Origin: a virus
Taxonomy: Duplodnaviria > Heunggongvirae > Uroviricota > Caudoviricetes
DNA: 44,935 nucleotides
Reading direction: 5' to 3' (one strand)
Virus record (IMG/VR): IMGVR_UViG_643348551_000004
Positions within the stretch are counted from its first letter, which is position 1; each line of letters opens with the position of its first letter. The notes below the pieces were generated by a model. The model was given only the letters and a program-made list of their open reading frames with translations, ran no database searches and was not told where the DNA came from. Below, piece by piece: positions 1,392-44,935 of the stretch. A program made the position numbers and the translations under genes.

Positions 1392-1641
1392 GGTTACCTC
1401 TGCTTTTTGAACGCATGTCACGTAACTTCTTAATGTGTTCTGCCGTTTCGATCTCTTCTGCTATCCGATCTGCATCAGCTTTATTCACAGGTTCAAAGTC
1501 ATGATTAAAGCGGAACATGCTGGCGATACATGTTCTGCCTTTTCGGATGTAGTGAACTTTGTTGTGGGTAGAACGCAGGATTTTGCAGGGAGTGCCGTGG
1601 TGGTCGACGTACCAGGTGTTAGGAAAAATGATTCTGAACAT
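1363..1641 (-). CDS. Hypothetical small phage protein (92 aa)
   Basis: ATG at 1641 with strong GAGGTG RBS 5 nt upstream; in the int-proximal early-left operon; no recognisable motif. Confidence 0.45.
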   Translation of the reverse strand: MFRIIFPNTWYVDHHGTPCKILRSTHNKVHYIRKGRTCIASMFRFNHDFEPVNKADADRIAEEIETAEHIKKLRDMRSKSRGNHGIIQPHTR

Positions 1642-1906
1642 TTTTACACCTCAATTGGACGATGTTGAAATTTGCTGCTTTGAGGCCATCACAGTCCCCA
1701 TTGTTTGTTCTTAAGTTCGATCTCCTCCTGCAACTTGCACAAGTCCGACAACCCTGAACGGCCAGGCGTCTTCGTTCATCTATCGGATCGCCACACTCAC
1801 AACAATGAGTGGCAGATATAGCCTGGTGGTTCAGACGACGCATTTTTATTGCTGTATTGCGCTGTAATTCTTCGATTTCTGATGCTGAATCAATGATGTC
1901 TGCCAT
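1619..1906 (-). CDS. TraR/DksA-family C4 zinc-finger protein
   Basis: CxxC...CxxC pattern (CCECGDPIDERRRLAVQGCRTCASC) typical of phage/plasmid TraR-like proteins; start is 6 nt after the stop of a possible upstream micro-ORF. Confidence 0.55.
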   Translation of the reverse strand: MADIIDSASEIEELQRNTAIKMRRLNHQAISATHCCECGDPIDERRRLAVQGCRTCASCRRRSNLRTNNGDCDGLKAANFNIVQLRCKNVQNHFS

Positions 1907-2274
1907 CTTCCATTAATCTCTGAATTGTTGGTTAATACGCTTGAGGGTGAATGCGAATAATAAAAAAGGAGCCTGTAGCTCCCTGATGATTTTGCTTTTC
2001 ATGTTCATCGCTCCTTAAAGATGCCGTTTAACATGCCGATCGCCAGGCTTAAATGAGTCGGTGTGAATCCCTCAGCGTTACCGTTTCGCGGTGCTTCTTC
2101 AGTACGCTACGGCAAATGTTATTGATGCTCCTGTCTGGTGACAGCCATCGGGCTTGTATTATGTATAAGTTCTGATAAAAGCCTCCGATATATTAAATTT
2201 AAATAACGAAATTCATCTTCTTGATAAGTTGTGATAGCATCATTAAAAGTTTCAGTTCGTTGAGCAGGGATTAC

Positions 2275-2853
2275 ATGGTAAATCAGCAACAGCAACAGAT
2301 TAACGAAAATCTAAAAATTGAGGCAATCCGTTGGTATCAGAAGCTGCAGGAGATTACTTATCTTGAAGCAGGACAACACATGCGGGCTTTAAATCAGCTC
2401 ATGTGGCAAATCCCTAGTTTCGTAATTGCTGTCAATGGTGGGTTGTGGTATGCAACAACACTGGCAAATGAAAGTTCCCTATGGATTATCTTTGCAGTGT
2501 TAGCATTGTTTGATTTCACAACAATGATTACACTTTATCGCTTAAGGTCTTTAATTGGTTCGAAAATAGCACTACAAAAAAACATTGAAGATCCTTCAAA
2601 AAACTATATTTTAAATGAAATTACTAGAGACGCTGGATTTAAATTGCCCTCTAGCTATGATAATAAGGAAACTGGTTACATAGTAGTGTCGTGCTGGGCA
2701 GTAATGCTTATTGTTTGCTTCTTTGTTAATATTGCTGGAGTATATCATCCAAACTTGTTTTCAAAAGACATTTCACATAATACATACAAAGCAACAATTA
2801 AAAATATTGAGTCAGGATTATTTATCGAAGCAAAATCAGGATTATCAAAGTGA
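2275..2853 (+). CDS. Small integral membrane protein, about 3 predicted TM helices
   Basis: ATG at 2275 preceded by AGGGA; hydrophobic segments IPSFVIAVNGGLWYATTL, LWIIFAVLALFDFTTMITLY, GYIVVSCWAVMLIVCFFVNIAGV; AT-rich; opposite strand to the flanking early operon; a TTG at 2221 is an alternative start. Confidence 0.5.
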   Translation: MVNQQQQQINENLKIEAIRWYQKLQEITYLEAGQHMRALNQLMWQIPSFVIAVNGGLWYATTLANESSLWIIFAVLALFDFTTMITLYRLRSLIGSKIALQKNIEDPSKNYILNEITRDAGFKLPSSYDNKETGYIVVSCWAVMLIVCFFVNIAGVYHPNLFSKDISHNTYKATIKNIESGLFIEAKSGLSK

Positions 2854-3452
2854 CTTCGTGGAAGTTTTATGACAATAATGCTGATCGCTTATTTGCCGAT
2901 TATATATCACTTGATTTTTACTCTATCTTTCAGGATGTTGAAGAGTTTATTTTACAATCTAAGGGTGTCTCTTTGGATGTCGGTTCAGGTTCCGGCCGTG
3001 ATGCTGCTGCGTTAGATGAATTAGGTTATAAAGTAATAGCTGTTGAACCAAGTGAAAAGATGCGAAATTTGGCATCTTCATATTATAAATCTAACCATAT
3101 TATATGGTTAGATGATTCATTGCCTTTTCTTCATAGTGTTAAAGCAATGAATCTAAAGTTCGACCTTATTTTAGTCAGTGCTGTATGGATGCATCTTTCA
3201 AAAAAAGAGCAAAAAATCTCACTAGAGACGCTAACTGATCTTTTAACATTGAATGGGAGAATGATAATTACATTGCGCTTAGGACCTCCCGAACCAGATA
3301 GAAACATTAACGTTGTTAATACTGAGGAACTTCTTGAGTTAGCGTCTCAGTTAGGTCTGAAAACATTGCGAGTTACGTCAATAAATAAAGATAGTTTTCA
3401 ACGTAACCAGATAACTTGGCAGAAAGTTGTATTATCAAAAAATAATGAGTAA
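2850..3452 (+). CDS. Class I SAM-dependent methyltransferase, small-molecule (TehB-like) type
   Basis: Motif I LDVGSGSGRDAAAL and post-I acidic residue; about 200 aa with no DNA-MTase DPPY/target-recognition features; GTG start overlaps the upstream stop (GTGA). Confidence 0.6.
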   Translation: MTSWKFYDNNADRLFADYISLDFYSIFQDVEEFILQSKGVSLDVGSGSGRDAAALDELGYKVIAVEPSEKMRNLASSYYKSNHIIWLDDSLPFLHSVKAMNLKFDLILVSAVWMHLSKKEQKISLETLTDLLTLNGRMIITLRLGPPEPDRNINVVNTEELLELASQLGLKTLRVTSINKDSFQRNQITWQKVVLSKNNE

Positions 3453-3463
3453 ATAACTTAGTA

Positions 3464-4708
3464 TTATTCGCACAGACCGTAGCGTGAAGAGCAAACCTCT
3501 ATATCGAGACTTGCTTTTACAAGATCGTAGACCTTGCCACCGCGCCCTGTTTTTGCCCACTCTACGACTTCATAAACACCCGGAGAATTAAGATCTCCAC
3601 GAGGACCATAAAATCCTGACCAGTCGATGTGTTGCACATCAGGTTTTAGCCCAAAAAGTTGAATATTTCGACCAAGTGGCAGATTGAACTGTTTCATCCA
3701 GCGTTGGCTTATCTCTCCTACGCTCATCCAGTGTACCCATCTACTAGCAAGGCGTACCTTCAACTCCCATTGTTTGTGCTTTTTGATGTGCTCTGGCCAG
3801 CGCGCAGCCGTCTCTGCAATTTCCTCTTTGTTGCATAGCACGCAATTCATGCAGCCAACACGAGACGCACCTTGCATATAAAGTGGATTTGGCTTAATTC
3901 CGAAATATTTGTGAACTGCGAATACGTCCTCAGCCGTCCATTTGTGGAGCGGCAGGAAGTTGTAGAGAAAATCGGCGTCGCGCATATCGCGGGAAAACCT
4001 CTCATATCCAGCGCGCTTAGAGGACTCATCCGCGCGAACACCAGACCATTGTACGATAACATCGCCAGCATCAAGGAGCGGCTTTATGGCTGCGTCGAAA
4101 GCTATCTGAATTTTCAGTTCGTCTGTACAGAATCGGTCGCGCAGCATAGGGAACTTGCCATGCAGAAGGGAGCAATCCAAAAAGCTATTACCGGATGGGT
4201 GCATAACGGAAAGCGCAGCATCAAGAGCAGTTTCGAACTCAATTCCCCAGCGTTCTGCTGTGCGCTTCCAGGCTTGCCCGAATTTGGTGTCAGAACGTGC
4301 GAGGGAAGGCATGACTATGCCACGGTATGCTCCCATGCGGATCATCTGTCGTTTAGACCAGTTTTTTTGCAGATAAATTCGTCGTTTGGCAAAATCTTCT
4401 TCAGTGTAAATCCGCTTCACAACCTGCACAGGGCTACAACCGATCTGCTCATGAATGCTCCTGGCGAATTCGACAGTTAGATTATGCTCATTATCCGTGT
4501 CTGCCATAACAGCATGTACCTGTTTGCCGAATAATGTGTGCGCCACTGCGAGTGTGGCAGTGCTGTCTTTTCCTGCTGAATAATTCACGATTATCTTATG
4601 ATCATTAGGGATGCGAAATTCATTTATATATCTGTTGTAGGACTCTTCTATTTCGCGAATTTTCTTGCTGATGTCTGTTGGGACAATAATTATTGCTGCC
4701 TCGTTCAT
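3464..4708 (-). CDS. PAPS reductase / PP-loop ATP pyrophosphatase family protein (DndC-like fold)
   Basis: 414-aa ORF with N-terminal PP-loop NYSAGKDS; GGGAGG RBS; start overlaps the stop of the upstream small ORF (ATGA). Confidence 0.7.
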   Translation of the reverse strand: MNEAAIIIVPTDISKKIREIEESYNRYINEFRIPNDHKIIVNYSAGKDSTATLAVAHTLFGKQVHAVMADTDNEHNLTVEFARSIHEQIGCSPVQVVKRIYTEEDFAKRRIYLQKNWSKRQMIRMGAYRGIVMPSLARSDTKFGQAWKRTAERWGIEFETALDAALSVMHPSGNSFLDCSLLHGKFPMLRDRFCTDELKIQIAFDAAIKPLLDAGDVIVQWSGVRADESSKRAGYERFSRDMRDADFLYNFLPLHKWTAEDVFAVHKYFGIKPNPLYMQGASRVGCMNCVLCNKEEIAETAARWPEHIKKHKQWELKVRLASRWVHWMSVGEISQRWMKQFNLPLGRNIQLFGLKPDVQHIDWSGFYGPRGDLNSPGVYEVVEWAKTGRGGKVYDLVKASLDIEVCSSRYGLCE

Positions 4709-4863
4709 ACCGCCTCCCGTTTATTATTTATCTCCTCAGCCAGCCGCTGGGCTTTCAGCGGATTTCGGATAACAGAAAGCCCGGGAAATACCCAGCCTCG
4801 CTTTGTAACGGAGTAGACGAAAGTGATCGCGCCTACCCGGATATTATCGTGAGGATGCGTCAT
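4705..4863 (-). CDS. Small ORF downstream of exo (52 aa), in the position of lambda orf60a
   Basis: ATG overlaps the exo stop (ATGA) and its own stop overlaps the next start (ATGA), suggesting translational coupling; below the ORF-track length cutoff, translated by hand. Confidence 0.35.
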
Positions 4864-5540
4864 CGCCATTGCTCCCCAAATACAAAACCAATTTCAGCCA
4901 GTGCCTCGTCCATTTTTTCGATGAACTCCGGCACCATCTCGTCAAAACTCGCCATATACTTTTCATTCCGCTCAATCACGACATAATGCAGGCCTTCACG
5001 CTTCATGCGCGGGTCATAGTTGGCAAAGTACCAGGCATCTTTTCGCGTCACCCACATGCTGTACTGCACCTGGGCCATGTAAGCCGACTTTATGGCCTCG
5101 AAACCACCGAGCCGGAACTTCATGAAATCCCGGGAGGTAAACGGGCATTTCAGCTCAAGGCCATTGCCGTCACTGCATAAACCATCGGGAGAGCAGGCGG
5201 TGCGCATACTTTCGTCGCGATAGATGATCGGGGATTCAGTAACATTCACGCCGGAAGTGAATTCAAACAGAGTTCTGGCGTCGTTCTCGTACTGTTTTCC
5301 CCATGCCAGCGCCTTAGCATTAACTTCCGGAGCCACACCGGTGCAAACCTCAGCCAGCAGGGTGTGGAAGTAGGACATTTTCATGTCAGGCCACTTCTTT
5401 CCTGAGCGGGGCTTTGCTATCACGTTGTGAACTTCTGAAGCGGTGATGACGCCGAGCCGTAATTTGTGCCATGCATCATCCCCCTGTTCGACAGCTCTCA
5501 CGTCGATCCCGGTACGCTGCAGGATAATGTCCGGTGTCAT
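4860..5540 (-). CDS. exo: Lambda-type 5'-3' exonuclease (Red-alpha)
   Basis: 226 aa, recalled as near-identical to lambda Exo ([39 protein letters not shown]...). Confidence 0.95.
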
Positions 5541-6322
5541 GCTGCCACCTTCTGCTCAGTGGCTTTCTGTTTCAGGAATCCAAGAGCTTTTACTGCTTCG
5601 GCCTGTGTCAGTTCTGACGATGCGCGAATGTCGCGGCGAAATATCTGGGAACAGAGCGGCAATAAGTCGTCATCCCATGTTTTGTCCAGGGCAATCAGCA
5701 GAGTGTTAATCTCCTGCATGGTTTCATCGTTAACCGGAGTGATGTCGCGTTCCGGCTGGCGTTCTGCAGTGTATGCGGTATTTTCGACAATGCGCTCGGC
5801 TTCATCCTTGTCATAGATACCAGCAAATCCGAAGGCCAGACGGGCACACTGAATCATGGCTTTATGCCGTAACATCCGTTTGGGATGCGACTGCCACGGC
5901 CCCGTGATTTCTCTGCCTTCGCGGGTTTTGAATGGTTCGCGGCGGCATTCATCCATCCATTCGGTAACGCAGATCGGATGATTACGGTCCTTGCGGTAAA
6001 TCCGGCATGTACAGGATTCGTTGTCCTGCTCAAAGTCCATGCCATCAAACTGCTGGTTTTCATTGATGATGCGGGACCAGCCATCAACGCCCACCACCGG
6101 AACGATGCCGTTCTGCTTATCAGGGAAGGCGTAAATTTCTTTCGTCCACGGATTAAGGCCGTACTGGTTGGCGACGATCAGCAATGCGATGAACTGCGCA
6201 TCGCTGGCATCGCCTTTAAATGCCGTCTGGCGAAGAGTGGTGATCAGTTCCTGTGGGTCGACAGAATCCATGCCGACACGTTCAGCCAGCTTCCCAGCCA
6301 GCGTTGCGAGTGCTGTACTCAT
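5537..6322 (-). CDS. bet: Lambda-type ssDNA-annealing recombinase (Red-beta)
   Basis: 261 aa, recalled as near-identical to lambda Bet; overlaps exo start by 4 nt. Confidence 0.95.
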
Positions 6323-11871: not shown

Positions 11872-11938
11872 TGAAACAGGTGAGTTGATTTCAAACTGTA
11901 GTACAATTCTCTCCAGTTTGAACAGGAAAGAATATGCT

Positions 11939-12271
11939 ATGAACCCTTATATTTATCTTGGTGGTGCAATACTTGCAGAGGTCATTGGTACAACCTTAAT
12001 GAAGTTTTCAGAAGGTTTTACACGGTTATGGCCATCTGTTGGTACAATTATCTGTTATTGTGCATCATTCTGGTTATTAGCTCAGACGCTGGCTTATATT
12101 CCTACAGGGATTGCTTATGCTATCTGGTCAGGAGTCGGTATTGTCCTGATTAGCTTACTGTCATGGGGATTTTTCGGCCAACGGCTGGACCTGCCAGCCA
12201 TTATAGGCATGATGTTGATTTGTGCCGGTGTGTTGGTTATTAATTTATTGTCACGAAGCACACCACATTAA
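11939..12271 (+). CDS. emrE: SMR-family multidrug efflux protein EmrE
   Basis: 110 aa, MNPYIYLGGAILAEVIGTTLMKFSEGF... recalled as E. coli EmrE (a DLP12 prophage gene). Confidence 0.9.
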   Translation: MNPYIYLGGAILAEVIGTTLMKFSEGFTRLWPSVGTIICYCASFWLLAQTLAYIPTGIAYAIWSGVGIVLISLLSWGFFGQRLDLPAIIGMMLICAGVLVINLLSRSTPH

Positions 12272-12527: not shown

Positions 12528-14054
12528 ATGAAAAAAGCCATAGCATATATGCGATTTTCATCACCAGGTCAGATGTCTGGCGACTCATTAAACCGACAGA
12601 GAAGACTTATTGCTGAATGGTTAAAGGTAAATAGTGATTATTATCTTGATACCATAACATATGAAGATTTAGGATTAAGTGCATTCAAAGGAAAGCATGC
12701 ACAATCAGGAGCTTTTTCGGAATTTTTAGATGCTATAGAGCATGGTTATATATTGCCAGGAACTACATTGTTAGTTGAAAGTCTGGACAGACTTTCAAGA
12801 GAAAAAGTCGGTGAAGCGATTGAGCGTCTGAAATTGATTTTGAATCACGGTATTGATGTTATAACTCTTTGCGATAATACAGTCTATAATATTGACTCTT
12901 TGAATGATCCATATTCATTAATAAAAGCCATACTTATAGCACAAAGGGCAAATGAAGAAAGCGAGATAAAGTCAAGTCGGGTTAAATTATCATGGAAGAA
13001 AAAACGGCAGGATGCACTGGAGTCAGGCACGATTATGACGGCGTCTTGTCCGAGATGGCTCTCCTTAGATGACAAAAGAACGGCTTTTGTTCCAGACCCC
13101 GACAGGGTGAAAACTATTGAGCTAATTTTTAAACTCAGGATGGAAAGGCGCTCATTGAATGCAATAGCCAAGTATTTAAATGATCATGCTGTAAAGAATT
13201 TCTCAGGAAAAGAAAGTGCATGGGGACCTTCTGTAATTGAAAAATTATTAGCGAATAAAGCTCTGATAGGTATATGCGTACCTTCATATCGTGCAAGAGG
13301 TAAAGGAATAAGTGAAATCGCTGGCTATTATCCCAGAGTCATATCAGATGATTTGTTTTACGCTGTGCAGGAAATTCGGTTGGCACCTTTTGGTATTAGC
13401 AATAGTAGCAAAAACCCTATGTTGATAAATCTACTTCGAACAGTTATGAAGTGCGAGGCTTGTGGTAATACCATGATTGTTCATGCGGTATCTGGAAGTT
13501 TGCATGGCTATTATGTTTGTCCGATGAGAAGACTGCATCGATGTGACAGGCCATCAATAAAGAGAGATTTGGTTGATTATAATATCATTAATGAGTTGCT
13601 TTTTAATTGTAGTAAAATCCAACCAGTTGAAAACAAGAAAGATGCTAATGAAACTTTAGAGTTGAAAATTATTGAGCTCCAGATGAAAATTAATAATTTA
13701 ATTGCTGCATTATCTGTTGCGCCTGAAGTTACCGCTATAGCAGAAAAAATCAGAGTATTAGATAAGGAATTACGAAGGGCTTCTGTATCATTAAAAACTT
13801 TGAAGAGTAAAGCGGTGAGCTCACTTGGTGATTTTCATGCTATTGACTTAACCAGTAAAAATGGGCGAGAGCTATGTCGTACACTTGCCTATAAAACATT
13901 CGAAAAAATCATAATCAATACAGATAATAAAACCTGTGATATCTATTTTATGAATGGCATTGTTTTTAAACACTATCCTTTAATGAAAACAATATCCGCC
14001 CAGCAGGCGATAAGTACTCTCAAATATATGGTTGATGGTGAGGTTTATTTTTGA
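12528..14054 (+). CDS. ybcK: Large serine recombinase (resolvase-type N-terminal domain, recombinase domain, Cys-rich zinc ribbon)
   Basis: 508 aa; N-terminal AYMRFSSPGQ catalytic-serine motif; Cys cluster CEACGN...CPMRRLHRC; AT-rich; recalled as DLP12 YbcK. Confidence 0.85.
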   Translation: MKKAIAYMRFSSPGQMSGDSLNRQRRLIAEWLKVNSDYYLDTITYEDLGLSAFKGKHAQSGAFSEFLDAIEHGYILPGTTLLVESLDRLSREKVGEAIERLKLILNHGIDVITLCDNTVYNIDSLNDPYSLIKAILIAQRANEESEIKSSRVKLSWKKKRQDALESGTIMTASCPRWLSLDDKRTAFVPDPDRVKTIELIFKLRMERRSLNAIAKYLNDHAVKNFSGKESAWGPSVIEKLLANKALIGICVPSYRARGKGISEIAGYYPRVISDDLFYAVQEIRLAPFGISNSSKNPMLINLLRTVMKCEACGNTMIVHAVSGSLHGYYVCPMRRLHRCDRPSIKRDLVDYNIINELLFNCSKIQPVENKKDANETLELKIIELQMKINNLIAALSVAPEVTAIAEKIRVLDKELRRASVSLKTLKSKAVSSLGDFHAIDLTSKNGRELCRTLAYKTFEKIIINTDNKTCDIYFMNGIVFKHYPLMKTISAQQAISTLKYMVDGEVYF

Positions 14055-17039: not shown

Positions 17040-18137
17040 TTAGAACTGGTAAACCAGACCTACAGCAACGATGTCATCAGTGCTTACACCGAGTGCTTTA
17101 GTGAAGTCATTTTTGTCAAGCAGGTTGATTTTGTAATCAACGAAAGTAGACATATTTTTGTTGAAGTAATAGGTTGCACCTACATCAACATATTTGACTA
17201 AGTCCTGATCGCCCCATACTCCAAGATCTTTACCTTTAGATTGCAGGTAAGCAACGGACGGACGCAGACCGAAATCGAACTGATATTGTGCAACAGCTTC
17301 GAAGTTTTGGGCTTTATTAGCAACGAAGTGATCAGCAAATACAGTCATATTCTGGGTTTCAGAATAGGTAGTGGCCAGGTAAATGTTGTTAGCGTCATAT
17401 TTCAGACCTGCGGCCCAAACTTCTGCATTTTTACCGGAAGCAAATACTTCAGGAAGAACTTTCCCTGCATTAACTTGAGTGTCGGTACGATCAGATTTCG
17501 CATAAGTTGCACCGATACCGAATCCTTCGTATTCATAGGTAGCAGAGAAACCGAAGCCATCACCGTTACCTTCAGTGTAGTTATCGAAATCGCTACGATC
17601 GTTTTTGCCTTGGTACTGAGCAGCAAAGTTCAGACCATCAACCAGACCAAAGAAGTCGTTGTTACGATAGGTTGCAACACCAGTGGTGCGACCAGTCATG
17701 AACACATCTGTTTGGGTCCAGGTATCGCCACCGAATTCTGGCAGAACGTCAGTCCACGCACCGATGTCGTATGCTACACCGTAGTTACGGCCGTAATCGA
17801 TTGAGCCGTAGTCACCGAATTTCAGGCCTGCAAATGCAAGACGGGTTTTGTCTTTGGAGGAACCTTGAGATTCAGCGCGGTTGCCTTTGAATTCATATTC
17901 CCACTGACCGAAACCAGTCAGTTGATCGTTGATTTGGGTTTCACCTTTGAAGCCAAGACGGGCATAAGTAGTATCACCATCATCTGCATCATTAGAGGAG
18001 AAGTAGTGCTTGGCATTAACTTTCCCGTACAGATCCAGCTTGTTACTGTCTTTATTATAAATTTCAGCTGCCTGAGCAGACATCGCCATCAGTACTGATG
18101 CAGCTACAGCAGAAATTGCCACTGTTAATTTTTTCAT
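17040..18137 (-). CDS. nmpC: Outer-membrane general porin, OmpC/OmpF family
   Basis: 365 aa with signal peptide [23 protein letters not shown] and C-terminal aromatic residue (..VYQF); uninterrupted ORF between Q and the lysis genes. Confidence 0.92.
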
Positions 18138-40047: not shown

Positions 40048-40647
40048 ATGCGTAAAGTTTGTGCCGCCATTTTGTCCGCAGCCATTTGTCTGGCCGTATC
40101 CGGTGCGCCTGCATGGGCGTCTGAACATCAGTCCACGCTGAGCGCGGGGTATCTTCATGCCCGGACCAACGTTCCCGGCAGTGATGATCTGAACGGGATT
40201 AACGTGAAATACCGTTATGAGTTTACGGATACGCTGGGGCTGGTGACGTCATTCAGCTATGCAGGAGACAAGAATCGCCAGCTGACCCATTACAGCGATA
40301 CTCGCTGGCATGAAGATTCCGTTCGTAACCGCTGGTTCAGCGTAATGGCGGGGCCGTCTGTGCGCGTGAATGAATGGTTCAGCGCGTATGCGATGGCGGG
40401 TGTGGCTTACAGCCGTGTGTCGACTTTCTCCGGGGATTATCTCCGCGTAACTGACAACAAGGGGAAAACGCACGACGTGCTGACCGGAAGTGATGACGGT
40501 CGCCACAGCAACACGTCTCTGGCGTGGGGAGCTGGCGTGCAGTTTAACCCGACCGAATCCGTGGCCATTGATATTGCTTATGAAGGCTCCGGCAGTGGCG
40601 ACTGGCGCACTGACGGTTTCATCGTGGGTGTCGGTTATAAGTTCTGA
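40048..40647 (+). CDS. lom: Outer-membrane protein Lom (Ail/Lom family)
   Basis: 199 aa with signal peptide and beta-barrel pattern ending ..GVGYKF; downstream of J as in lambda. Confidence 0.85.
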   Translation: MRKVCAAILSAAICLAVSGAPAWASEHQSTLSAGYLHARTNVPGSDDLNGINVKYRYEFTDTLGLVTSFSYAGDKNRQLTHYSDTRWHEDSVRNRWFSVMAGPSVRVNEWFSAYAMAGVAYSRVSTFSGDYLRVTDNKGKTHDVLTGSDDGRHSNTSLAWGAGVQFNPTESVAIDIAYEGSGSGDWRTDGFIVGVGYKF

Positions 40648-44344: not shown

Positions 44345-44935
44345 TTATATGTCAGGTGTCTGAAGTTTTGCTTTGGCTCTTAAAATGGTTTGCCGCGAGG
44401 TTTTGAATTCCCGGGCAATGGCACTTATACTTACACCTGACTTAATTCGTTCGAATGCCACCTGTTTCTGTTCTTCATTTAACACAGGTGGTCGACCAAA
44501 ACGTTTCCCTGCGCCGCGGGCTCTTACTATCCCGGAATGAGTGCGTTCAAGTAAAAGGTCTCGTTCAAATTCAGCGACTGCTGAAATTACGTGCATCATC
44601 ATTTTTCCTGTTGGACTGGTCAGGTCAATGCCCCCCAATGCTAAGCAATGCACTCTGATACCTGTTTCGGTCAGTTGTTCCACTGTTTTCCTGATATCCA
44701 TTGCATTACAACCAAGGCGATCCAGTTTTGTCACAATCAATTGATCACCACATTTCAGGCGAGCAAGCAACCGGTTAAAACCAGGACGCTCACTGGTTGC
44801 TGCTGAGCCGCTAATGTGTTCTTCGATTATTTGCTGAGGTTTGATTTTAAAACCTGCACTTTCGATTTCCCGGCGTTGATTTTCGATGGTCTGATCCAGC
44901 GTTGATATCCGACAGTAAGCAAAAATTCGAGACAT
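44345..44935 (-). CDS. pin: Serine DNA invertase, Pin/Hin/Gin family
   Basis: 196 aa; N-terminal catalytic-serine motif (YCRISTLDQ); C-terminal HTH; convergent with tfa as in Rac/Qin prophages; start codon is at the window edge. Confidence 0.85.

Follow-up and report, generated by a model that had tools for sequence, protein, structure and literature searches.

The window analysed here is the whole of the 44,935-nt viral record IMGVR_UViG_643348551_000004, whose source is a lambda-like Escherichia coli prophage; unless another record is named, all coordinates below are positions in this window. On the minus strand of its early-left region lies a gene (3464..4708) for a 414-amino-acid (aa) protein that resembles 3'-phosphoadenosine-5'-phosphosulfate (PAPS) reductases, carries a PP-loop (the ATP pyrophosphatase motif) and belongs to the phage 186 Orf84/PHROG 424 family. 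We argue below that this is not a sulfate-assimilation gene and that, with about even probability, it encodes an early counter-defence or DNA-directed sulfurtransferase dependent on ATP and an iron-sulfur (Fe-S) cluster.

The gene follows the early-left recombination genes, all on the minus strand: bet (5537-6322) and exo (4860..5540), which encodes a YqaJ-type exonuclease (Pfam YqaJ, 5e-30) and shares ~96% DNA identity with lambda. Between exo and the gene for the 414-aa protein lies a 52-aa open reading frame (ORF; 4705..4863) homologous to lambda orf60a (Pfam DUF1317, 7e-34). int is found at 1-1164, also on the minus strand, with further left-operon genes between it and the recombination genes. 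The original prediction, made from the sequence alone, described a 414-aa protein with the PP-loop SAGKDS downstream of exo, linked to it by a 52-aa ORF with ATGA overlaps at both ends. This description is borne out by direct reading of the ORF, of residues 44-49 and of the two overlaps, one between the exo stop and the DUF1317 ORF start (4860..4863), where lambda is arranged alike, and the other between the DUF1317 ORF stop and the start of the 414-aa gene (4705..4708). As for the translational coupling to exo that was also proposed, the stop/start overlaps are present, and from these the coupling itself may be surmised. A GGGAGG sequence (4713-4718) stands 4 nt before the start of the 414-aa gene. 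The program-made ORF list also offers an in-frame ATG at 4869 as the start of the DUF1317 ORF, giving 54 aa; the 4863 start is the better call, as a GGGGAG box 8 nt 5' of it provides better Shine-Dalgarno spacing and the ATGA junction of lambda orf60a and exo is then reproduced. Promoter and terminator scans over ~1800-5000 returned sites no more numerous than in shuffled sequence. The 414-aa gene is genuine, since 100% identical proteins occur in 93 database sequences and the protein belongs to a large family.

Escherichia phage phi458 (OP434518.1; L001, where L, P and H numbers are our own handles) shares 99.2% identity with the window over the gene region, and its record labels the gene (3531-4775) "putative transcriptional regulator." Homology to lambda, and likewise to its many relatives, ends at ~4697, within the last codons of the orf60a homologue, so the 414-aa gene fills the slot that holds orf63, orf61, ea22 and ea8.5 in lambda. 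The proposed replacement of the orf61/orf63/ea22 block is thus confirmed, with ea8.5 to be added to it.

The 414-aa protein matches Pfam PAPS_reduct (PF01507) at 6.8e-21, with 75.5 bits against a gathering cut-off of 22.5 bits, and contains a true PP-loop, in agreement with the original family assignment. The match spans residues 39-290 on profile positions 2-173 of 175, a spread which indicates that the domain carries insertions; no other Pfam domain is present. PHROG 424 matches the protein end to end (7e-66). In tblastn searches, relatives with ~31-36% identity at 91% coverage were found in phage 186 (Orf84, 3e-48 at the same coverage), P2-like phages, Burkholderia phage phiE125 (gp57), Pseudomonas Riah, Serratia Parlo, Stenotrophomonas S1 and others; for 186 Orf84, phiE125 gp57 and the P2-like phages the identity is ~35%. 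The AlphaFold2 (AF2) model has a mean predicted local distance difference test (pLDDT) score of 80 and a predicted template modelling (pTM) score of 0.80. When 1.84 billion cluster representatives were searched with a profile, 246 clusters matched at E <= 1e-30 and 1,098 at E <= 1e-10, with lengths mostly of 300-380 aa. The viral CysH branch is distinct from the Cas-associated branch in a published tree (PMC10541130). A PDB sequence search with the 414-aa protein found no close solved relative, the searchable literature yielded no functional study of the viral CysH-like family, and the phage 186 record describes Orf84 as "unknown function; not essential."

The protein and the group formed by 186 Orf84, phiE125 gp57 and the P2-like "PAPS reductases" (PHROG 424) are members of one family, sharing the PP-loop, the segments FCTxxLK, WxGVRADES, NPLY..RVGCxxC, W..T.RGG and CSSxYGLCE, and five cysteines. 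The group is also encoded in early operons, often with translational coupling to a neighbour, as indicated by a note in the 186 record and by the overlaps counted below. The enterobacterial form of 414-443 aa differs from the group by an added helix at the N-terminus (residues 1-37) and by insertions at ~118-160 and ~325-372, and the gene here is placed after exo and the DUF1317 ORF, whereas those of the group precede replication gene A or follow a DNA methyltransferase gene. The 414-aa protein is a stand-alone, ordinary member of a large phage family that is already recognised but functionally uncharacterised. The label commonly given to this family, PAPS reductase (in phi458, "regulator"), probably misleads.

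To describe the likely active site, we counted residue conservation in 133 distant representatives of <=50% mutual identity, extending earlier alignments of 49 close homologues and then 7 distant ones. The PP-loop, S44-A-G-K-D-S49 (codons at 4562..4579, minus strand, as for all codons given here), comes after a strand at residues 38-42 in the ORF translation and AF2 model and is of the SGGxDS type; in Aeromonas relatives it reads SGGKDS. Its S, G, K, D and S are kept in 126, 129, 120, 127 and 126 of the 133 representatives, respectively. Still more constant are Cys194, Lys199 and Cys286, which are present in all 133, and Cys289, present in 130. Cys406 and Cys413, kept in 127 and 128, lie in a flexible C-terminal tail (pLDDT 64-69; C406-SSRYGL-C413-E414, codons at 3467..3493).

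The pair Cys286-x2-Cys289 (C286-M-N-C289, 3842..3853) aligns position by position with the GCxxC (Cys228/Cys231) of the [4Fe-4S] adenosine-5'-phosphosulfate (APS) reductase of Pseudomonas aeruginosa (2goy) and also with that of Mycobacterium tuberculosis (7lhr). The motif FC194TDELK199 (C194 to K199, 4112..4129), with a predicted first Fe-S ligand and active-site lysine, would correspond to the CCxxRK of APS reductase; the hidden Markov model (HMM) alignment starts one residue after this motif. Where APS reductase has Cys-Cys, the 414-aa protein has a single cysteine (C-T), while the CxxC aligns in both. C194, C286 and C289 thus make up a predicted three-cysteine [4Fe-4S] site, one cysteine fewer than in APS reductase, as is also the case in TtuA and as reported for DndC, which has a three-cysteine [4Fe-4S] cluster and a cysteine dyad (PMC10853773). 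An ATP-type PP-loop, a three-cysteine site and a mobile cysteine pair point to the make-up of an adenylating, Fe-S- or persulfide-dependent sulfurtransferase.

The family is among the auxiliary metabolic genes most often reported (as cysH) in phage and virome surveys, where it is routinely read as sulfur assimilation. According to this interpretation, the protein would be a genuine APS/PAPS reductase that provides infected or lysogenic cells with sulfite to make cysteine. Such a role is the default annotation and the usual one in virome papers; the fold and the Fe-S CxxC do match those of assimilatory APS reductase, and the C-terminal cysteine tail recalls the catalytic ECGLH cysteine of CysH. 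The tail reads YGLCE, so that a cysteine does stand on a flexible C-terminal stretch, though in a different motif and with a second conserved cysteine (C406). Against an assimilatory role, every curated cut-off for CysH or APS reductase was failed by 3- to 10-fold: the NCBIfam CysH models TIGR00434, TIGR02057 and PRK02090 gave 35.1, 23.7 and 50.8 bits against cut-offs of 165.1, 254.2 and 154, with matches restricted to residues ~217-310, and the APS reductase model TIGR02055 gave 47.1 against 235.3. Assimilatory APS reductases (2goy, 7lhr) have a degenerate sulfonucleotide-binding loop, whereas the 414-aa protein has a canonical ATP-type PP-loop, a second tail cysteine and ~190 additional residues. 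CysH is not known to have a canonical ATP-type PP-loop. Moreover, E. coli has its own cysH, and the family genes lie in early replication and recombination operons beside DNA methyltransferase genes, never beside sulfur-assimilation genes. Membership of the sulfate-assimilation clade, the outcome that the original prediction had set against itself, is ruled out by the NCBIfam cut-offs and the PP-loop, and we consider an assimilatory role distinctly improbable.

We also compared the protein with the PP-loop enzymes of DNA phosphorothioation and related defence systems. Among PADLOC models the best match was SspD (6e-19), followed by BrxP (4e-16) and DndC (6e-9), and the matches cover only residues ~183-328, in the C-terminal half of the core, corresponding to profile positions 74-211 of 277 for SspD and 244-334 of 779 for BrxP. 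The same ranking was obtained for 186 Orf84, an Aeromonas member and vibriophage proteins. The DndC equivalog model TIGR03183 gave 32.2 bits against a cut-off of 290.4, over residues 187-275 only. DndC, SspD and BrxP thus have the PAPS_reduct/PP-loop core in common with the 414-aa protein, which differs in being phage-borne and stand-alone. BrxP of BREX type 4 is a PAPS reductase fused to DUF4007, with brxC, brxZ and brxL as neighbours (PMC12914056, PMC12839542). No DndA, DndB, DndD or DndE, no SspA, SspB or SspC, no BrxC, BrxZ or BrxL, and no DUF4007 is encoded near the 414-aa gene, and no DndD/DndE, SspB/C or Brx partner occurs among the neighbours in 79 representative loci of the family. 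Membership of the DndC, SspD or BrxP families is ruled out by the cut-offs, the partial coverage and the absent partners. The earlier comparison with DndC-type enzymes accordingly stands for the shared core and fails, by the TIGR03183 score and the missing partners, for DndC itself.

A different alternative is an RNA-directed thiolase of the TtuA/TtcA/NcsA kind that would act on host or phage tRNA and so tunes translation or recoding, or shields the tRNA from anticodon nucleases. The zinc-finger and tRNA-binding extensions of TtuA and NcsA are absent from the 414-aa protein, the similarity is at noise level (E ~0.9), and the genomic context of the 414-aa gene points to DNA; RNA is in our judgement a rather unlikely target. 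Type IV-B CasCysH offers a further comparison, as a non-metabolic PAPS-reductase-like PP-loop protein on mobile elements that is without the catalytic cysteine (PMC8175902). The 414-aa protein, by contrast, has five conserved cysteines, and no csf1-3 or cas11 neighbours are found near its gene.

The "regulator" label of phi458 is probably derived from IbrA, and would make the protein a transcriptional co-activator of prophage genes. IbrA and its E. coli homologue YbdN do share with the 414-aa protein a PAPS_reduct core, a length of ~400 aa and an association with prophages. They differ in having DUF3440 and a ParB-like partner, IbrB/YbdM: DUF3440 has no Pfam match in the 414-aa protein, and no ParB-like IbrB partner appears in the ORF list of this window, although some family members do lie beside ParB-like genes. 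YbdN aligns only over a 58-column core (hhalign 86%, BLASTP E 0.007) and lacks the CxxC. The label is unsupported on these grounds, and an IbrA-like regulator can be ruled out as a family assignment; co-activation as such is highly improbable. Of the three profiles that had been suggested for searching, then, PAPS_reduct matched, the DndC model fell short of its cut-off and DUF3440 was absent.

We next considered the genomic context of the family, using 211 loci from viral and genome collections reduced to the 79 representatives at <=85% identity mentioned above. Family genes always lie in early replication, recombination or regulation regions of unrelated temperate phages, whether behind lambda P in the nin region, ahead of gene A in P2/186, or downstream of exo or erf/ssb modules. 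The junction between the DUF1317 ORF and the PAPS-reductase-like gene is shared by Enterobacter prophages whose recombination modules differ. In 37 of 73 representatives the start of the family gene overlaps the upstream ORF stop by 4 nt, whatever the upstream gene. The immediate same-strand upstream ORF encodes a DNA methyltransferase in 11/73 (N6_N4 in 4, C5 in 4 and D12 in 3), as does the immediate same-strand downstream ORF in 6/74. Taken together, 17/147 immediate neighbours are DNA methyltransferases, compared with 4/123 at the next position (Fisher p = 0.012). As three methyltransferase chemistries are involved, the association looks like a single anti-restriction or DNA-modification toolkit rather than one particular methyl mark. 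Sulfur-assimilation genes were never found next to family members.

Links to DNA modification extend to fusions. One Aeromonas relative (P0107) is an MT-A70::PAPS-reductase fusion, preceded by Nmad5 and DUF4406 genes. When the long relatives were screened for fusions, P0125 alone was added, its N-terminus resembling a methyltransferase weakly and short of the Pfam thresholds. In another locus (L015) an MT-A70 gene stands two genes upstream, and ParB-helix-turn-helix genes lie upstream in three (L016, L034 and L221). An Aeromonas veronii prophage (L045, 4357-8094) carries a run of genes encoding a DUF4406 protein (nucleoside deoxyribosyltransferase-like), Nmad5 (a nucleotide-modification-associated domain), a 232-aa unknown and then the MT-A70::PAPS-reductase fusion, which looks like a compact DNA-modification operon. 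PAPS-reductase-like modules are also found in Methanoculleus viruses (H201/H202), annotated "DNA modification methylase," and in Sulfolobus monocaudavirus SMV2 (H331), annotated "PUA-PAPS reductase-like fusion protein," further links of the module to nucleic-acid enzymes. Separately, DksA/TraR-type zinc-finger genes recur near family members (5/123 second neighbours, Enterobacter loci L223-L225 and phage 186), and the window contains at 1619-1906 (minus strand) a 95-aa ORF with C4 zinc-finger cysteines (CCECG...CRTCASC).

These contexts bear on whether the protein might act instead as an inhibitor or decoy, which would sequester IscS/DndA, DndD/E or SspB/C or, like the PP-loop enzyme Cap9, modify a protein, and leave no mark on phage DNA. 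Cap9 is indeed a structural neighbour of the 414-aa protein. The recurrent pairing with DNA methyltransferases, on the other hand, fits DNA as the substrate, and near-total conservation of the PP-loop, Lys199 and the five cysteines in very distant relatives argues for catalysis over mere binding, leaving an inhibitor or decoy quite improbable.

A precedent for a role in escape from Dnd comes from vibriophages. Phage 44E38.1 encodes p0018, a 479-aa PAPS::Dam fusion, and a sister phage that received p0018 together with p0019 became able to infect Dnd-carrying Vibrio crassostreae (bioRxiv 10.1101/2021.05.05.442762). A 2026 paper lists PAPS reductases among the genes of Aca-regulated anti-defence operons and refers to Piel et al. 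2022 on a phage PAPS reductase in Dnd escape (PMC13551039). Aligned to our family profile, the PAPS module of p0018 (genome MW824398.1) gave an hhalign probability of 97.7% (E 2.2e-12) over 200 columns. It keeps FCTDxxK, WxGIRADE and CxxCxK and is closed by a cysteine pair followed by Glu (CSESCE), and a short stand-alone vibriophage form ends GCRVCEI. Like the 414-aa gene, p0018 is a phage accessory gene adjoining recombination genes, and PADLOC ranks SspD above BrxP for both. It differs in its Dam fusion, which the 414-aa protein does not have, in the absence of the W..T.RGG segment, in its CSESCE pair and in an identity of only ~22% in the aligned region, and 44E38.1 is absent from the tblastn match lists. 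Judged by these alignments, the precedent is homologous, not demonstrably orthologous. The partner gene p0019 (L248, 3549-4139) encodes a DUF6475 protein and overlaps the PAPS::Dam gene by 4 nt; in one representative of the family to which the 414-aa protein belongs, the ORF directly upstream likewise encodes DUF6475. Another anti-Dnd protein, JSS1_004, was examined as a possible PAPS reductase and proved to be a kinase.

Together, the fold, the motifs, the placement at the early-left operon's distal end, the association with methyltransferases and the homology to a module implicated in anti-Dnd activity lead us to favour, at roughly even probability, an early counter-defence or DNA-directed sulfurtransferase. 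In such an enzyme, the PP-loop would bind ATP and adenylate an oxygen of a nucleic-acid substrate. Sulfur would come from the host cysteine-desulfurase relay (IscS), carried as a persulfide on the C-terminal cysteine pair and/or on the free iron of the three-cysteine cluster, and would replace the activated oxygen, much as in the action of DndC, SspD and BrxP on DNA and of TtuA and TtcA on tRNA. Expressed early in lytic growth alongside replication and recombination, the protein would either mark phage DNA or neutralise host readers of sulfur or methyl marks, allowing escape from Dnd/Ssp-type and related restriction. It would then belong, with the orphan DNA methyltransferases that often lie beside family genes, to one accessory set of anti-restriction tools. 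The nucleic-acid modification or anti-restriction role in the original prediction, as a hypothesis, thus gains support from the cut-offs, the PP-loop and five cysteines, the methyltransferase neighbours and fusion, and the vibriophage relative.

Several points weigh against this proposal. The main difficulty is that the known phosphorothioation systems do not work without an ATPase and a subunit for DNA recognition (DndD/E, SspB/C or BrxC) (PMC10853773), and no such partner is encoded near the 414-aa gene. No member of the 186 Orf84 family has a demonstrated substrate or product, 186 Orf84 being recorded only as non-essential, and the Fe-S cluster is predicted solely from sequence alignment. 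Methyltransferase adjacency is limited to between about a fifth and a quarter of the representative loci and could reflect accessory-gene clustering instead of shared chemistry; in this window, no DPPY/NPPY-type DNA methyltransferase motif was found in the ORFs. In addition, most E. coli strains are not known to carry Dnd or Ssp, so the selective target in this host is not obvious. The vibriophage precedent has its own limits: p0018 has a variant PP-loop, SGGRTS, and a fused Dam at residues 300-476, and the swap involved two genes gained and four lost, so that the PAPS domain's own share was not isolated (bioRxiv 10.1101/2021.05.05.442762).

A bolder version of the favoured reading, which we regard as possible though unlikely, is that the protein is a self-sufficient DNA sulfur writer, placing phosphorothioate or thiobase marks on replicating phage DNA with only host IscS and ATP and thereby hiding the phage from Dnd-, Ssp- or BREX-4-type immunity. 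If so, it would work without the ATPase and recognition subunits of all known phosphorothioation systems, and the "cysH" auxiliary metabolic genes of viromes would largely be DNA-modification or counter-defence genes. A positive answer on DNA sulfur modification would define a minimal enzyme for it and correct a widespread annotation. Carried by phi458, a lambda-like phage of E. coli that is spontaneously inducible, this copy offers about as tractable a setting as can be had for settling the function of the family.

The 414-aa gene also has a convergent neighbour. The original prediction saw no obvious adjacent partner gene, which holds for the same strand, but it overlooked a low-GC two-gene cassette on the plus strand (2221..3452) that ends only 11 nt away. 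Its two genes share 4 nt: the first encodes a 210-aa hydrophobic protein (2221-2853, from the ORF list) and the second a 200-aa class I S-adenosylmethionine (SAM) methyltransferase (2850-3452) with matches to Pfam Methyltransf_11/25 and a partial match to PADLOC mad2 (7e-15). Between the methyltransferase stop codon and that of the 414-aa gene lie only positions 3453-3463, without a terminator-like hairpin, so early-left (pL) transcription and that of the cassette would collide. The gap is likewise 11 nt in L034, a viral contig collinear with 2324-4660 at 70.7% DNA identity, and 14 nt in Enterobacter relatives.

This arrangement could mean that the cassette and the 414-aa gene form a three-gene unit, for example a prophage defence or exclusion system with its modifier. 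The collinearity with L034 and its matching ~11-nt stop-stop junction are in keeping with such a unit, as is the presence of the trio in E. coli, Serratia and Enterobacter prophages with differing upstream genes. Furthermore, among 5,426 complete E. coli genomes, 28 contain the stretch 2100-4720, in every case whole and chromosomal. Most family members, however, have no cassette, and the cassette but not the gene is present in a Citrobacter Rac-like prophage and in a Salmonella defence island, where AbiE and a ScoMcrA-like HNH nuclease lie next to it. There is also a sharp difference in GC content (30-40% for the cassette, 45-52% for the 414-aa gene), and the opposite orientation implies different expression programmes. 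A three-gene unit is, on balance, very unlikely. The cassette is probably a separate mobile module, not an obligate partner, and was inherited along with the gene within a single lambdoid sub-lineage; it is a candidate for a defence gene set or moron expressed in the lysogen. An exact-pattern search of viral contigs for the 200-aa methyltransferase recovered identical copies only; its diverged relatives came from a protein database search.

Elsewhere in the window, two ORFs have serine-recombinase-like N-termini, recognised by eye only: one in the nin region (12528-14054, plus strand; MKKAIAYMRFSSPGQ...) and one at the right end beside the tail-fibre genes (44345-44935, minus strand), possibly an invertase. 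Visual inspection of N-termini also picked out three apparent morons: a small hydrophobic SMR/EmrE-like protein (11885-12271, plus strand), a porin-like 365-aa protein with a signal peptide (17040-18137, minus strand) and a Lom/Ail-like 199-aa outer-membrane protein (40048-40647, plus strand).

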